Of a stretch of 64,000 nt of DNA, positions 42,373-64,000 are shown piece after piece; within the stretch, counting starts at the first letter, position 1; each line of letters opens with the position of its first letter. The DNA comes from Aestuariivirga sp. (GTDB lineage Bacteria; Pseudomonadota; Alphaproteobacteria; Rhizobiales; Aestuariivirgaceae). A program made the translations under genes and the position numbers. The DNA is taken from positions 6,494 to 70,493 of the forward strand of contig JBGTJO010000090.1 in NCBI GenBank assembly GCA_041745135.1, in the 5' to 3' direction. Below the pieces are notes generated by a model, which was not told where the DNA came from, ran no database searches, and worked only from the letters and a program-made list of their open reading frames with translations.

Positions 42373-42833
42373 ACATCACGGTGAATGGCGTCAAACATGA
42401 CATCGCGTGCGGCGATGGCGATCGTTTGTCGGATGTTCTCAGAAGTGGGCTGGGACTGATCGGCGTTCGTGTCTCTTGCGCGGAAGGCGAGTGCGGCTCC
42501 TGCACGGTGATCTTGAACGATCAGCCGGTTACATCGTGTCTCGTGCTGGCGCGCCAGGCGGAGGGAGCCACGGTCACCACGGTGGAAGGCATCGGCACGC
42601 ATGACCGGCTTCATGCGATTCAGGAAGCTTTCGTGGAGCAGCAGGCCTTCCAATGCGCCTTCTGCACGCCAGGGTTCATCATGAGCGCGTACGCCTTCCT
42701 GAAGGAGAACGGCAATCCGACGGAGGAGGAAGCCTCCGATGCGGTGGCCGGCAATATCTGCCGGTGCGGGTCGTATCCTTACATCGTGAAGGCCGTTGTC
42801 GCCGCAGCGCAGAAGATAAGGGAGCGGGTGTAG
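42369..42833 (+). CDS. (2Fe-2S)-binding small subunit
   Basis: C.EGECGSCTV...SC, QCAFCTPG, GNICRC. ATGA overlap. Confidence 0.94.
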   Translation: MNITVNGVKHDIACGDGDRLSDVLRSGLGLIGVRVSCAEGECGSCTVILNDQPVTSCLVLARQAEGATVTTVEGIGTHDRLHAIQEAFVEQQAFQCAFCTPGFIMSAYAFLKENGNPTEEEASDAVAGNICRCGSYPYIVKAVVAAAQKIRERV

Positions 42834-42835
42834 CC

Positions 42836-45187
42836 ATGGGCAAGCAGGAATTCAATATCGTCGGGAAACCGATACCGGTGAAGGATGCAAGGGAGAAAGT
42901 CACCGGCTCCCTGAAATATGCGGTGGATTTCGAGGTGCAGGGGATGGTGCATGGCAAGATTCTGCGCTGTCCCCACCCCCATGCCCGCGTAACGCGGATC
43001 GACGCGTCGCGCGCTCTGGCCCTCCCAGGTGTGATCGGCGTGCTGACCCATGAGGACGCGCCGCAACTTGAATGGCACGGCTGCTGGTTCAACTACCGCG
43101 GCAAGATCATTGACGGCGTGGGACGGTTCGTGGGCGATGAATTGGGCGCGGTGGCCGCCGTCAGCCCGGCCATCGCGGAGAAAGCTCTGGGGCTTATCGA
43201 TGTCGAATACGAGCTTCTGCCGGCGGTGTTCGATGCGGAAGAAGCGATGCAACCCGGCGCGCCCCAAGTTCGCGATGACGGCAATGCGCGCGAGCCCGTT
43301 GTCACCGAATGGGGCGATGTGGAAGCGGGACGGCGCGATGCCGATGAGATCATTGAAACAACGATGGTGTTCGGGTCCCAGCAAATGGCCTCCATCGGAC
43401 GCAACGCCTGCATTGCCGAGTGGAACGGGGATCGCCTCACGCTATGGACATCCTCGCAGACGCCTTCGGAGTTGCGCGACGCCTTGGCCCAGGGCCTGGG
43501 CGTTCCTCAAAGCAAGGTGAGGGTGCAGGCGTTTCCAACCGGCAGCTCTTTCGGCTTGTGGTGGTCGAACAACTTCATGATGGTGACGGCACTGCTCGCC
43601 AAAAAAATACGGCGTCCCGTCAAGATCGAACTGGACAATGAGGAATGCTTCGGCACGGTGAAGCGCCGCCACAAGGAGCGCACGCGGGGCAGCATAGGGT
43701 TTACCAAGAAGGGCGATATCACCTTCATCGATGTGAAGCACATCATCGATAATGGCGCCTATGGGTACAAGAACGAGGTTGGATTCTTCTGCTGCGACAA
43801 CTGGGGAACGGTCCCCAACGGCCACTACAGCGTCCAGGGCGTTTCGACGAACCTGGTGACGGCGGGCTGCATGCGAGGCGTTGGCGATGTGACGCTTGGC
43901 ACTTGCGTGGAGCGCATGCACGACATGGTGGCGGAGCGCCTCGACATCGATCCTTTGACGTTCCGAATCAAGAAACAGATGAGGGAAGGAGACCGCCTGC
44001 GGAGCGCCATGGGGCAGGACGCAGTGATGGGCGACGTCGATCAATATCTGGCGCAACTGCCGGAGGAGCTTCGCGCGCGGATGCCCAAGCCGTTTCACCT
44101 CTCCAGCGGTTCGACGCACGATATTCTGGTGCGGGGCGGAAAAGAGTTTCAATTCGCGGAGCGCTGGAAGGGCTGGGGCAAGCCCTATTCCGTTTCGCGC
44201 CGCAAAAGCAGAGCTGTGGGCGTTGCCACCGGCATTCATTGTTGCGGGGTCGAATTCGAGGGCAACACCAATGCCATGGTGCGCATCAATCCCGATGGCA
44301 GTGTCAAACTTCATTGCGCCGTGGGGCGGCAGGGGCAGGGGAGCGAAACGACGCTCTCCCAGGTGGCGGCGGAAACATTGGGCATTCCGATCGCCATGGT
44401 GGAGATCGAGACGGGGGATACGGATTCCTGCCCGTGGAGCCACGGCTCGATTGCTTCCAATACCATGTACCGCACGGGGTTCGCCGCGTGGGCGGCATCG
44501 CTCGACGCGCGCCGCCAGATTCTCGAGATCGCGGGACGCAACATATTCGATTGCGATCCCTCGGGGCTCGATATCCAGGACGGGATGGTGTTTCAGAAAT
44601 CTCACGGTTCCAATCGGCTGGTATCGATAACGGAAATCATGCACCTCATCCGCAACGATGCGCTGGGCCAGCAATCCTCGATCGTCGGCAGGCCGGCATT
44701 TGCCATGCCGCCCTCCACCACCTTCGCGCGCCATTTCGCGGCGCATTTCGTCGATCTCGAGGTCGATCTCGAGACGGGCGAGATCAAGCTTCTGGATTAT
44801 CTTGCCGCGCAGGATAGCGGCACCGTCGTCAATCCGCAGGTTCTCAAGAACCAGGTGATTGGCGGCGCGATCTGCGGTGCGGGCTTTGCGCTCTATGAGG
44901 AACTTGTGTTCGATGAAACGTCCGGGAAGGTGAGGAACGCTGGTTTCCTGGATTACAAATTGCTTCGGACACCGGACTTTCCGGCGAATGCGAAGGCACT
45001 TTTTGGCGAGAGCTACGACCCTGTAGGCCCGTTCGGCGCACGTGGCGCCGGCGAGGCGCCAATCGCGGCAGCGGTGCCAGCTATTTGCCAGGCCGTTTAC
45101 AACGCGACCGGCCATTGGTTCGATATCCCGATGACGCCGGAGCGCATAGCCATGAAACTTTCCGCGCAAAAGCAGGCCGCCCTGTGA
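42836..45187 (+). CDS. Xanthine dehydrogenase family molybdopterin-binding (large) subunit
   Basis: DA.EKVTG...Y..D, R.PHPHA, MRGVG, GQGSET, DSG.VVNP, RGAGE. Confidence 0.94.
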   Translation: MGKQEFNIVGKPIPVKDAREKVTGSLKYAVDFEVQGMVHGKILRCPHPHARVTRIDASRALALPGVIGVLTHEDAPQLEWHGCWFNYRGKIIDGVGRFVGDELGAVAAVSPAIAEKALGLIDVEYELLPAVFDAEEAMQPGAPQVRDDGNAREPVVTEWGDVEAGRRDADEIIETTMVFGSQQMASIGRNACIAEWNGDRLTLWTSSQTPSELRDALAQGLGVPQSKVRVQAFPTGSSFGLWWSNNFMMVTALLAKKIRRPVKIELDNEECFGTVKRRHKERTRGSIGFTKKGDITFIDVKHIIDNGAYGYKNEVGFFCCDNWGTVPNGHYSVQGVSTNLVTAGCMRGVGDVTLGTCVERMHDMVAERLDIDPLTFRIKKQMREGDRLRSAMGQDAVMGDVDQYLAQLPEELRARMPKPFHLSSGSTHDILVRGGKEFQFAERWKGWGKPYSVSRRKSRAVGVATGIHCCGVEFEGNTNAMVRINPDGSVKLHCAVGRQGQGSETTLSQVAAETLGIPIAMVEIETGDTDSCPWSHGSIASNTMYRTGFAAWAASLDARRQILEIAGRNIFDCDPSGLDIQDGMVFQKSHGSNRLVSITEIMHLIRNDALGQQSSIVGRPAFAMPPSTTFARHFAAHFVDLEVDLETGEIKLLDYLAAQDSGTVVNPQVLKNQVIGGAICGAGFALYEELVFDETSGKVRNAGFLDYKLLRTPDFPANAKALFGESYDPVGPFGARGAGEAPIAAAVPAICQAVYNATGHWFDIPMTPERIAMKLSAQKQAAL

Positions 45188-45864
45188 CGGCTCCGCTCAC
45201 CCTGGTTAGCCACAATCTTTGTCCCTATGTCCAGCGGGCGGCGATAGCGCTTCTGGAAAAGGGCATCGTATTCGATCGCGTGACCATCAACCTCTCGGCA
45301 AAGCCGGACTGGTTTCTGAAGATATCCCCGCTTGGGAAAGTGCCGCTGCTGCGGGTTCGGCGCGATGATGGTTCCGAAGCGGTGCTCTTTGAAAGCAATG
45401 TTATCTGCGATTATATCGAAGAAACACAGACGGGGCCGAAGCTCCATCCCTCCGATCCTCTGGAGCGCGCCGAACATCGGGCCTGGATGGAGTTCGGTTC
45501 GGCCATCCTCAGCGATATCTGGGGACTGGAAACAACGCAGGAGGCAGGAATATTCGAGGCTAAGCGTGTGGCCATAGCCGCAAAGTTCTCACACATCGAG
45601 ACGCGGCTGAAGGGCGGGCCCTGGTTTGATGGCGAGCGCTTCAGCCTCGTCGATGCCGCCTTTGCTCCCATCTTCCGATACTTTGACGTGTTCGACCGCA
45701 TTACCGATACGCGGGTTTTTGCTCAGGTGCCCAAGGTACAAGCCTGGCGCGCGGCCTTATCCGGGCGGCCCAGCGTAAAAGCCGCGGTTGGCGCGGATTA
45801 TCCCGACCTGCTCCGCGCCTTTCTCGTACGCCATGACGCGCACCTCCTCAAACGCGCTGCATAG
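45184..45864 (+). CDS. Glutathione S-transferase family protein (omega/lambda-like CPY motif)
   Basis: GTGA overlap. LCPYVQR, SPLGKVP, LFES.VIC.YI, FSLVDAAFAP. Confidence 0.9.
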   Translation: MTAPLTLVSHNLCPYVQRAAIALLEKGIVFDRVTINLSAKPDWFLKISPLGKVPLLRVRRDDGSEAVLFESNVICDYIEETQTGPKLHPSDPLERAEHRAWMEFGSAILSDIWGLETTQEAGIFEAKRVAIAAKFSHIETRLKGGPWFDGERFSLVDAAFAPIFRYFDVFDRITDTRVFAQVPKVQAWRAALSGRPSVKAAVGADYPDLLRAFLVRHDAHLLKRAA

Positions 45865-46268: not shown

Positions 46269-46907
46269 ATGAAAGATACAAAAGGCAAGACACCAAACGC
46301 GGACATCAAGATGGCGCCGCGCACAGGCAATGGCTCCGCGCCAAAACCGGCGGCAGAGAGCAGCGCGGCCGCCGTTCAGCCGCAGCTCGATCCGGCACTC
46401 ATGGCAAAGATCGCCGCGGTGCGCACCCGCGTCCATGAGACATTCGGCAAGGTCGTGCTGGCGCTCACCGCGGCTCCACGCTACCGGCATTTGCCCATCT
46501 CCGATCTTTCGCAGGTGATCCTCGATCCTCTCATTCGCGACCGCGTGGCCATTGCACAGCCAGCCAAGCCCGGGCCTGCGGAAGAGGGAGGGCTCGCCGG
46601 CATCGCGATCTGGGCGAGTGTTTCGGAAGAGGTGGACGCCAAGATCCGCGAACAGATCAAGGCCGGCGTTTTTCCGGTGCGGCTGAAACCCGAGGATTGG
46701 ACCAGCGGCAAGATCAACTGGCTGCTTGATGTCATAGCACCCTCCACCAGGCTTGCAACTTCGGTTCTGGCCAATTTCAAACAGGTGATCAAGGAAGGCG
46801 ACATGCGCATTCACCCGCTGGTTGCAAAGCTCGTCGATCCCGAGGCGTTGAAGAAAATGGGCGCGGCGCCCGTCGCAACCGGTGGCGGCGCCGCCGCGAA
46901 AGTTTGA
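46269..46907 (+). CDS. RTX toxin-activating lysine acyltransferase family protein (HlyC/RtxC-like)
   Basis: G.VV......P.YRH..I.DL, WA.VS.E, RL..EDW.SG...WL.DVIAP. Confidence 0.82.
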   Translation: MKDTKGKTPNADIKMAPRTGNGSAPKPAAESSAAAVQPQLDPALMAKIAAVRTRVHETFGKVVLALTAAPRYRHLPISDLSQVILDPLIRDRVAIAQPAKPGPAEEGGLAGIAIWASVSEEVDAKIREQIKAGVFPVRLKPEDWTSGKINWLLDVIAPSTRLATSVLANFKQVIKEGDMRIHPLVAKLVDPEALKKMGAAPVATGGGAAAKV

Positions 46908-46956
46908 TTCTATTTTTTGAGGTGCAGTGATAATTTCAGCTGAAGAGGCTCATTCG

Positions 46957-47331
46957 CCGAGATGTTCGGCGGGACTGGTGTCCTCGGGCTTCTCCCATCT
47001 GACGGAGATGGATTCAAAGGGCGACGGCGTCATCATGTGAATGAGGCGGACTTTGCTTCGCTTCGCATCTGGCGCAATCTCGATACGCCGCAGCGCAATC
47101 ATCTGCTGGCACACGGCAATTACACTCGCGGCCGACGCATGACCGGCAAGCTGCGGTCTGCTTCGACACCAATCCGACGGACACTATCTACCGGCGAGCG
47201 CGGGCTCGCGGCCTGGCTCGATGCCGGGGGCGCTGCCCAATGCCAGGGGGCTTCAGCACGATGATCATCTCGCCATCGCTGCTTGTTCCGCAAACGACAA
47301 CTCGCAACTGGCGCGTGTAAAGGCGGCTGAA
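46957..47331 (+). pseudogene. Decayed relic of an RTX self-processing-module segment (cassette 0) ending in ANDN-SQLARVKAA
   Basis: Frameshifted match to ~50553-50980 (EMFGG, FASLR.WR.LD, LLAHGNYTR, GERG.AAWL) plus the tail seen at 51141-51188. Confidence 0.85.
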
Positions 47332-47339
47332 CTAGCCAA

Positions 47340-47621
47340 GTGGTGAATATATTTCTTGAAGGGAGTGTTTACATCACGCCTGACTTGAGGTCATATGCGA
47401 CTCTTGACGTGCGGGTGAAGTGTCTCGCGTTCCGCATAATAAATGAAGCGGCAGCTCCAAGAATGGAGCGCCCCAAAATGGAATGAGACAGGGGGAGATC
47501 TTGGTCGCCGGACTTGCCTTCAGTAGTGACGGACGACTTGGCGTGTAGCGATAATGCAAAGCGCGGCTACATCCTTGCTGAAGTGTTCGGGGTCGCATGA
47601 TCATAAGGAGCGGAAGAGCCG
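47340..47621 (+). repeat. Cassette leader, copy A (promoter/leader repeat)
   Basis: Alignable over ~280 nt with 51204-51489. Contains TTTACA-N17-TCATAT and a GCTCCA/TGGAGC hairpin. Confidence 0.85.
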
Positions 47622-47637
47622 TAGGGAGATTGCACTA

Positions 47638-48420
47638 ATGAACTCGGATGCGCCAGATGAAGACCCGCAACTGGAACCTGAGCTTATTGAGTGCAAGCGC
47701 CGGGTTGAGGCGGAATTCCCTCCGGTGGACAAAAACAGCCGCCCTCCGACAAGAGCCGATTTCCAGGATACCTCAGTCGGCGATGTACAGAATCTTGCCC
47801 AAGCTCTGCTCGACGATGCAAATACTGGAGTCGCAATCGGGCGCGTAAAATTGCACGGCGACTTGACTGATGCTGAAGAGCAAAGCGTTGGGCAAGTGAT
47901 CAACGCTTATGCTGCATCTCAAGGGTGGGGTCCAAGGGACTGGATATCGCTAATGCTTCCGCTTGCCCTGGCCCGCCGCGTGGCCGAGGGCGAAATTGCG
48001 TCCGTATTTTCCGAAGACGCCAAAACATTTTTGCGGCAACGCCTGGCTTACGGCGACTACGGCAATTTTACCGGGCAGCCGCCCAAGATGCCGTTCGACG
48101 ACTTTTTCCGCATATCGCAAGACCTGATGGCGGACAAGGAATATATGCATTGGCTGAATGAGTACAGAAGGAATTATAAAACTGAAGAGAGAAGGCTATG
48201 CATCCTGCACTACAAGCTTCACGGCGAGATAGAAAACAAATACAAAAAGAAATACGGCGTCAGGGGGGCCAAAACCTTCTGGTTTTTCTATTTTATCATC
48301 CAATTTCTGCACGGCGACTTGCCGCTCGACGACAGGGAAAAGCTGCGCGCTCATATGAGCGCGCATTGGCATCGTTTTGAAAGAGATATACTGGAGCTTA
48401 CCCAATGGCTGACCGTCTGA
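47638..48420 (+). CDS. Hypothetical cytoplasmic protein, candidate immunity partner of cassette 1
   Basis: RBS GGGAG, TAATG coupling, no signal peptide, overlaps the start of 48405 by 16 nt. Immunity role is inferred. Confidence 0.68.
   Translation: MNSDAPDEDPQLEPELIECKRRVEAEFPPVDKNSRPPTRADFQDTSVGDVQNLAQALLDDANTGVAIGRVKLHGDLTDAEEQSVGQVINAYAASQGWGPRDWISLMLPLALARRVAEGEIASVFSEDAKTFLRQRLAYGDYGNFTGQPPKMPFDDFFRISQDLMADKEYMHWLNEYRRNYKTEERRLCILHYKLHGEIENKYKKKYGVRGAKTFWFFYFIIQFLHGDLPLDDREKLRAHMSAHWHRFERDILELTQWLTV

Positions 48421-64000: not shown

Follow-up and report, generated by a model that had tools for sequence, protein, structure and literature searches.

A probable polymorphic toxin-immunity locus with N-terminal heads and upstream partners on a giant RTX protein of Aestuariivirga

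A self-processing module (SPM) in the FrpC and ApxIVA proteins cuts an Asp-Pro bond in calcium and leaves a reactive aspartyl anhydride able to link to lysine. FrpC, with its partner FrpD, has been read as an adhesion factor, and the variability of its N-terminus has been ascribed to immune pressure. FrpC/FrpD was later proposed as an effector-immunity pair belonging to a type I secretion system (T1SS), together with the finding that Smlt3024, an antibacterial type IV secretion effector of Stenotrophomonas maltophilia, is homologous to the N-terminal 300 aa of 221 repeats-in-toxin (RTX) proteins and that the immunity protein Smlt3025 has the FrpD fold (Bayer-Santos et al. 2019). The polymorphic-toxin survey of Zhang et al. 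(2012) lists the pairing of AHH with Imm11, places toxins at the C-terminus and includes no T1SS route. Burroughs and Aravind (2025), in their lipocone paper, report toxin domains fused N-terminally to RTX repeats and a novel colicin M-like toxin domain with membrane-anchored immunity proteins. Giant RTX bacteriocins, among them RzcA of Rhizobium leguminosarum (439 kDa), have a role in strain competition by a mechanism stated as unknown. Here we describe a locus in a 64,000-nt stretch of DNA, hereafter the window, from Aestuariivirga sp. (assembly GCA_041745135.1, contig JBGTJO010000090.1, forward-strand positions 6,494-70,493), a 77%-complete genome from a hot-spring community according to the provenance of its sequencing runs, all of one hot-spring study. 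A giant RTX gene is preceded there by a truncated copy of its own 5' part with a different N-terminal domain ('head') and a different upstream partner gene. We consider this to be, probably, a polymorphic toxin-immunity locus on a type I-secreted RTX protein, the mirror image of contact-dependent inhibition (CDI) and Rhs loci.

Open reading frame (ORF) listing and repeat finding place all elements of the locus on the + strand, in the order HlyC gene, relic, junction repeat, partner 1, 927-aa ORF, junction repeat, partner 2 and giant RTX ORF. The HlyC-type lysine acyltransferase gene (46269-46907, 212 aa; Pfam PF02794, E 1.6e-11) is followed by the relic of an older truncated unit (46957-47331, recognized by repeat comparison) and by junction repeat, or leader, 1 (47300-47621), which holds the end of a tail, an intergenic region and a 13-codon mini-ORF and is ~85% identical to leader 2. 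Partner 1 (47638-48420, 260 aa; start placed at the same codon by an independent gene call) is a candidate cytoplasmic immunity protein for the PIN-fold head of the intact orphan ORF (48405-51188, 927 aa), which consists of head 1, a segment shared with the giant protein and a tail. Leader 2 (51150-51489, repeat comparison) reaches into the first 25 nt of partner 2 (51465-52049, 194 aa), a candidate periplasm-facing immunity protein with an Arg-rich N-terminus and then one hydrophobic anchor. The giant RTX gene opens with head 2 (aa 1-330, 52055-53044; characterized by an AlphaFold model and a family search), an RTX-containing linker common to many relatives (aa 331-642, 53045-53980; Pfam HemolysinCabind) and a 3' homology arm (53981-55357) made of a conserved pre-SPM segment (aa 643-856) and the SPM (aa 857-1101), with the Asp-Pro bond at nt 54620-54625. 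The body, assigned from domain matches, occupies 55358-64000 and runs past the window end. GC content falls to 43-50% over partner 2 and head 2 and to 48-56% around the region where partner 1 ends and head 1 begins, against a genome mean of 60%, and no similarity between the partners or heads of the two units is detectable. A preceding sequence-only reading had placed every one of these elements, including the HlyC-like gene, the start of partner 1, the unrelated partners and N-terminal domains and their lower GC content, and needed small corrections only.

The tandem arrangement is not an assembly artefact, because independent Logan contigs from two hot-spring samples span every unique junction of the locus: relic to leader 1; leader 1 to partner 1; the end of the first shared segment through the tail to leader 2; and leader 2 through partner 2 and head 2 to the second shared segment. 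The stretch is present, as contigs, in three DNA runs of the hot-spring study, and no RNA run is listed. A metagenome assembly chimera of two strains with one head each might be suggested by contigs that break within the shared repeats. The bridging contigs over the end of the first shared segment, tail and leader 2 and over the relic and leader 1, an even depth over both units, and a like layout in complete or isolate genomes (Agrobacterium, Sphingobium and a Nitrospirales chromosome) make it extremely improbable.

The heads vary among relatives while the scaffold is kept. The shared segment was found in 19 of 201 genomes of the same family, and a search of one genome per species gave at least 562 related stretches, the best 79 of which were analysed; these 79 loci belong to Sphingomonadales, Rhodobacterales, Hyphomicrobiales, Caulobacter, Nitrospirales, Burkholderiales and cyanobacteria. 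Compared over their first 300 aa, the 83 heads that stand before a conserved SPM form 23 clusters that do not track taxonomy, and four congeneric genomes carry four different heads. Invariant N-termini in related strains, which the sequence-only reading had named as the outcome that would speak for simple duplication and decay, are the opposite of this. Its proposed survey of homologous loci yielded toxin domains in the head slot and Imm11 in the upstream slot: AHH (8), Lipase_3 (9), Mbeg1-like (3) and Peptidase_M10 (4) domains among 82 heads, and Imm11 in 12 of 74 upstream partners, or 16 by jackhmmer iteration. In most loci an ORF on the same strand stops only a few bases away from where the head begins, and head clusters co-vary with partner clusters (adjusted Rand index 0.41 against a maximum of 0.13 in 2000 shuffles, a value inflated by related loci).

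Arrays of truncated units occur in the congeners G175 and G110, Nitrospirales, Hyphomicrobiaceae, Sphingobium and Agrobacterium, and intact truncated ORFs with head and SPM and without body are present in the window, G110, Agrobacterium, Sphingobium and Nitrospirales, at least six of them on one Nitrospirales chromosome. G175 has HlyC, SPM fragments, a DUF4261 gene, Imm11 (E 5e-11) and an ORF with an AHH nuclease (E 2.6e-10) at its start and the shared segment behind it, after which come a second DUF4261-Imm11 pair and the next ORF. In G110, SPM fragments and a partner gene accompany a truncated ORF of 998 aa whose head is metallopeptidase-like. The Agrobacterium locus (L123) reads AraC regulator, HlyB, HlyD, HlyC, small ORFs (one a PIN-like fragment), Imm11 and a homologue of partner 1, followed by a 934-aa orphan with a head 1, another Imm11 and a 10,858-aa protein; a mobilisable Sphingopyxis plasmid (L124) carries T1SS genes, HlyC, a partner gene and an SPM gene. 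T1SS genes directly adjoin HlyC in both of these loci, and SPM-bearing RTX genes also stand beside T1SS genes on Rhizobium plasmids. We note that a 181-aa ORF between HlyC and the first Imm11 of the Agrobacterium locus (L123:7685-8230), which has 28% identity to residues 1-128 of the PIN-like head, probably represents what is left of another displaced head. We also note that in two metagenome-assembled genomes (MAGs) of different orders, Sphingomonas (L071) and Tardiphaga (L072), the matches to HlyC, the pre-SPM segment and the SPM coincide exactly in coordinates and identities, a sign of either recent transfer or a binning error.

The two units of the window are joined by a homology arm that carries the SPM. 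Residues 448-904 of the orphan ORF and 643-1101 of the giant protein align over 459 aa at 88% identity with one 2-aa gap. The DNA copies (49747-51115 and 53982-55355) are 73-98% identical per 100 nt, with a longest identical run of 96 bp and 13 runs of at least 25 bp. In the orphan ORF the pre-SPM segment lies at 49746-50381 and the SPM at 50382-51116, between the PIN-like domain (48405-48974) and the tail (51117-51188). The second half of the shared segment is a match to the FrpC SPM (phmmer E 1.8e-35 to PDB 6sjw over 162 residues), and a precomputed Pfam match to PF26745 'SPM' exists for the orphan ORF and for its Agrobacterium relative. The Asp-Pro bonds are D659-P660 in the orphan ORF (nt 50382) and D856-P857 in the giant protein (nt 54623), and the bond is retained in 86 of 88 distinct related SPM ORFs, with Asp at -1. 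In the remaining two (L040, G018:C3; and L042, G163:C5) Ser-Pro stands in its place, and these homologues may not self-cleave. In the pre-SPM segment of ~215 aa, 68 of the 88 SPM ORFs retain a Lys at -10 and a Trp at -6 relative to the scissile bond (54590-54625 and 50349-50384 in the window); this Lys may be acylated by HlyC or may pair with the Asp anhydride.

A crossover in this segment would be in frame, because both copies are in equal codon phase. The expected product loses 4.24 kb and joins the PIN head in frame to the body, so that the geometry forecast from the sequence alone is correct in phase and homology arm, and the shared segment, put there at ~1.35 kb with a self-processing module, measures 1.37 kb. 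The copies have a synonymous divergence (dS) of 0.34 and a dN/dS of 0.21 overall and 0.09 in the SPM; they therefore did not arise by recent duplication in place, and each has evolved as coding sequence. By these ratios each copy is under purifying selection, as expected if the units come from elsewhere. A mere tandem duplication of the gene's 5' part and its later decay, without any cassette function, could point to the relic at 46957-47331, which is clearly decaying. Against it stand the divergence of the shared copies, heads and partners that are unrelated in sequence and fold and have their own relatives in distant taxa, an orphan ORF and partner that are both intact, and degron-like tails (described below) that recur in unrelated lineages; we hold this explanation to be very improbable.

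Unit 1 pairs a PIN-fold head with a soluble partner. Searches of Pfam, NCBIfam and PDB sequences gave no match for either head or either partner of the window, and word-based homologue searches gave none for partner 1 and one relative for head 1. The orphan ORF has a PIN-like domain (aa 1-190) and a glycine-zipper helical region (aa 218-390), and lacks the RTX body and a C-terminal secretion signal. Its structure was modelled from the whole 927-aa ORF with a four-sequence alignment, of which only residues 1-190 are usable (pLDDT 60-79); this part matches the PIN domains of Rrp44, Utp24, SMG5 and SMG6 at structural Z-scores of 9.4-8.2 and VapC toxins at Z 5 to 7, and PIN or PIN-like domains make up nearly all of the 30 best structural matches. 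D9, E44, D129 and D130 are invariant in the four-sequence alignment. In this model, head 1 is a PIN fold with conserved acidic residues, and nuclease activity is predicted. Relatives of head 1 occur in Agrobacterium, Bradyrhizobium and Sphingobium. Partner 1 has neither a membrane segment nor an export signal and overlaps the orphan ORF by 16 nt. A distant homologue (28% identity, E 1e-10) occupies the matching slot before the head-1-type gene in Agrobacterium, and Bradyrhizobium (L064) and a Hyphomicrobiales MAG (L061) likewise have distant homologues in this slot, preceding their head-1-type genes; the pairing of head 1 with this partner type thus recurs in Agrobacterium and Bradyrhizobium. 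The glycine-zipper region also recurs on its own behind other N-terminal parts (L061, aa 121-447; L045:1412-2842, aa 251-447), and may be a separate reusable module.

Unit 2 joins its partner to the full RTX gene. Partner 2 stops 5 nt before the RTX start and has no homologue in a search of 5.8 billion proteins; a weak match (33% over 45 aa) links it to the same-slot partner of L054, the only locus with a full relative of head 2. Head 2 is matched by 344 representative clusters, in every case at the N-terminus of the target, and a tblastn search with aa 330-640 of the giant protein, downstream of the head, found matches in Nitrospirales and other loci. The AlphaFold model of head 2 (pLDDT 86) has as its top four structural matches pectocin M1, PaeM, syringacin M and colicin M, all of the colicin M family of lipid II phosphatases (Z 6.1, 4.8, 4.6 and 3.9; root-mean-square deviation 3.5-4.5 over 143-147 residues; next match 2.6), and Foldseek against the PDB gave E-values of 0.3-3, which are not significant. 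Colicin M carries the catalytic motif D-x-Y-D-x5-H-R. The head-2 family conserves E-N-F-D-F and D-P-S-G-I-G-R, without the H-R pair, and head 2 was not assigned to the colicin M family on account of the missing motif. Its model bears a weak likeness to the catalytic domain of colicin M, which hints at a bacteriocin-type fold rather than at membership. A complex predicted for residues 1-300 of head 2 (44-row alignment) and residues 34-194 of partner 2 scored 0.00 with an uncertain partner fold, and is evidence neither way.

The element between units proved more than a leader. The sequence-only reading had described shared leaders; the repeat is present in both units, but the element is a junction repeat of ~300 nt (~85% identity) that begins inside the upstream ORF, with the final codons of the truncated ORF, and extends 25 nt into the partner-2 ORF. 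In leader 1 the mini-ORF overlaps the start of partner 1 (TAATG). An Rfam search of the window gave zero family matches, and a sigma-70 scan found promoter-like sites at no more than the level of shuffled sequence and none inside the leader core. The relic, called a decayed cassette 0 in that reading, is indeed real and decayed: it shows 75-85% identity to 50580-50843 and 54821-55084, has lost 94 nt by deletion, carries indels that break the frame, and contains the 3' part of an SPM plus a degron-like tail.

These tails resemble the tag added by transfer-messenger RNA (tmRNA). The orphan ORF ends ANDN-x8-AA, and the tmRNA tag of the source genome is ANDNYAPVALAA. Truncated ORFs end in AA in 12 of 15 cases, compared with 4.1% of long ORFs in the source genome, and four have NDN or NDS shortly before the end, giving the pattern NDN or NDS, 6-8 residues and AA-stop. 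Such tails lie at 51117-51188 and 47287-47331 in the window and elsewhere in L036:9954-10988, L038 (the 998-aa ORF), L050, L052, L053, L058, L089 and P0005. Because like tails are attached at differing truncation points (69, 257 and 268 aa past the Asp-Pro bond) and the tail coding sequence is the start of the junction repeat, the tail is part of the junction element rather than of the body. The most economical interpretation of this pattern is that a displaced toxin ORF receives a built-in degradation tag.

The giant protein has 8,426 aa in the full contig, its stop codon lying 580 bp before the contig end. The body comprises, in order, HCBP-related/RTX units, ~20 cadherin-like/Big_9 domains, He_PIG domains, an RTX block and an acidic-hydrophobic C-terminus, with 13 RTX stretches in the last 2,275 aa; an RTX block and an acidic-hydrophobic C-terminus of this kind are typical of T1SS substrates. 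Its long Ig/cadherin-like stalk and C-terminal RTX/T1SS end are also those of LapA-type adhesins. Classification as an HlyA-type RTX pore-forming cytolysin was rejected: the NCBIfam RTX_toxin model scores 13.7 bits against a cut-off of 1000 and the architecture is likewise unlike that of HlyA-type cytolysins, though an HlyC gene is present. That gene is the sole HlyC copy in the genome, and of 65 related loci with at least 8 kb of upstream sequence, 42 have an HlyC homologue no more than 10 kb upstream of the SPM gene. The hlyB and hlyD genes that the sequence-only reading had proposed to look for beyond position 64000 are not there, none being found between the RTX gene and the contig end, nor do T1SS genes adjoin the locus on its 5' side (window 1-45864), in contrast to Agrobacterium and Sphingopyxis. 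Elsewhere in the genome, contig C67 encodes an HlyB-like ABC protein extended at its N-terminus, and contig C133 a type I HlyD. The 5' side instead has a molybdenum hydroxylase (42653-45187), a glutathione S-transferase (45085-45864) and several ABC ATPase genes, and directly 3' of the RTX stop is a GC-rich inverted repeat (L001:19330-19600) of a type common as an intergenic repeat in Rhizobiales.

A mechanism can be proposed in which the giant protein exits C-terminus first through the T1SS encoded elsewhere in the genome. Extracellular Ca2+ would then fold the SPM, which would cut the Asp-Pro bond and free the head, possibly as a reactive anhydride able to link to a lysine on a nearby protein. 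The freed head would poison a competing bacterium, head 2 probably acting in the envelope and head 1 as an RNase in the cytoplasm, with its glycine-zipper region perhaps helping it to cross membranes, and the upstream partner would protect the producer. Partner 2 is anchored and partner 1 soluble; they therefore fit with an envelope target for head 2 and a cytoplasmic target for head 1. The HlyC homologue would probably acylate a lysine of the RTX protein. Spare units would keep immunity genes useful, and homologous recombination within the shared 1.37 kb could transfer them to the body, deleting the current head, while the junction element would cap the displaced ORF with its tmRNA-tag-like tail, so that a spare toxin that cannot be exported is degraded.

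A more far-reaching reading, to which we give a rather low probability, makes the junction element the working part of cassette exchange and the locus the T1SS counterpart of contact-dependent inhibition. An incoming unit would supply its own leader and a short coding tail, and this tail would close the displaced toxin ORF as an encoded degron, with the old toxin destroyed and its immunity gene still expressed. The folded, immunity-bound head might stall T1SS export in the manner of a LapA-type retention plug; the stalled 8,000-aa stalk would stay on the surface and withhold the toxin until contact. Ca2+-triggered Asp-Pro cleavage would then free the head, and HlyC acylation of Lys -10 together with the reactive anhydride would drive attachment to the target.

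The interpretation as a toxin-immunity locus draws on the heads of relatives, Imm11, head-partner co-variation and the PIN fold of head 1, which together support the array that the sequence-only reading had likened to CDI/Rhs orphans, with the toxin at the N-terminus, immunity upstream and spares stored 5'. Diverse toxin domains sit on a conserved scaffold (23 head clusters, with AHH, lipase, peptidase and PIN fold), and the spares have a homology arm (1.37 kb, a 96-bp identical run, in frame). The usual C-terminal toxin with downstream immunity and spares is not what is found, the head being N-terminal and the partner and spares upstream. The locus is thus predicted, on gene content and layout, to work like a polymorphic toxin family as its mirror-image variant. 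Several observations weigh against this interpretation. Neither partner of the window falls in a known immunity family by profile and homologue searches. The fold match of head 2 is of middling strength only (Z 6.1); its sequence lacks the colicin M catalytic motif and deviates from its own family consensus at the nearly invariant D169, A208 and I217. The counts over loci draw partly on related genomes and lack independence. A head at the N-terminus, once freed at the surface of the producer, would still need a route into another cell. A joint skipping 4.24 kb was not seen in the three metagenome runs, where contigs only are available and rare recombinants would be invisible (the few joints listed in those runs have short sides within RTX repeats), and a single crossover would irreversibly remove head 2 together with its immunity gene.

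Two other functions for the heads can be set beside the toxin-immunity interpretation. As an FrpC-like clip-and-link adhesin, the protein would use its head as a binding tip fixed covalently to a surface or host protein, with the partner as an FrpD-like anchor or receptor and the upstream units as spare tips. This is the published reading of FrpC/FrpD and ApxIVA, and it suits a body that resembles an RTX adhesin stalk (cadherin-like and Big_9 repeats) and a membrane-anchored partner 2. It is hard to square with relatives that carry nucleases (AHH, PIN fold), lipases and peptidases in this head slot instead of binding domains and whose partners are Imm11 immunity proteins, with a partner 1 that lacks an export signal, and with a hot-spring community source that has no evident host; we regard it as unlikely. 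An equally small probability attaches to heads that act as effectors against eukaryotic grazers or other non-bacterial targets, as CyaA or MARTX do, with partners as chaperones or self-protection. CyaA, an RTX protein activated by the HlyC-family acyltransferase CyaC, does carry an N-terminal enzymatic toxin domain and targets host cells, and lipase or protease heads could attack eukaryotic membranes. Tightly coupled, co-varying partners and Imm11 are, however, hallmarks of inter-bacterial conflict, and giant RTX proteins of rhizobia have measured bacteriocin activity.

If the toxin-immunity interpretation is true, type I secretion with N-terminal warheads joins the known delivery routes of polymorphic toxins, and the long-puzzling clip-and-link module of FrpC/ApxIVA gains a function as a release device for toxin heads. 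The same scheme could account for the mechanism of rhizobial RTX bacteriocins, which is relevant to nodulation competitiveness. The at least 562 related stretches, most of whose heads have no known family, would form a large unexplored pool of toxins and immunity proteins, and degron-like tails on displaced toxins would be a new protein-level silencing of spare weapons.

A full-text literature search found no account of the SPM as a release device, of upstream spares, of the junction element or of the HlyC link. The sequence-only reading knew of no description of this layout in Alphaproteobacteria; the layout itself was not found in the literature, but rhizobial RTX bacteriocins and two papers that hint at N-terminal toxins on RTX proteins precede it. 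The paper on Smlt3024/Smlt3025 treats one head family, without polymorphism, spare units or the SPM as a release device, and that of Burroughs and Aravind (2025) does not cover the SPM, upstream spares, the junction element or HlyC. The rhizobial RTX bacteriocins share with the present locus a giant alphaproteobacterial RTX protein, RzcA being compared by description only. CyaA differs in its host-cell target and has no immunity gene, SPM or cassettes.

The closest characterised system is FrpC/FrpD. Like FrpC/FrpA with FrpD in Neisseria meningitidis and ApxIVA in Actinobacillus, the Aestuariivirga locus combines a homologous SPM and its Asp-Pro bond with a variable N-terminus, a C-terminal RTX region and predicted T1SS export, and, as in FrpC/FrpD, where FrpD binds the N-terminal part of FrpC, a small gene lies directly upstream in the operon. 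Toxin domains, arrays of spare units, a link to HlyC and degron-like tails set it apart, none of these being described for FrpC, as does a length of 8,426 aa with a cadherin-like stalk. With CDI (CdiA-CT/CdiI), Rhs and the MafB and tpsC cassettes of Neisseria it shares a conserved scaffold, putatively exchangeable toxins and adjacent candidate immunity genes, along with silent spares that have a homology arm to the expressed gene and an overlapping repertoire (AHH with Imm11). Unlike in CDI and Rhs, the predicted toxin is N-terminal, the candidate immunity gene is upstream, and the spares lie 5', are truncated at their 3' end and keep their own start and leader; export would be by the T1SS, and release by a Ca2+-dependent Asp-Pro module instead of HINT or other peptidases.

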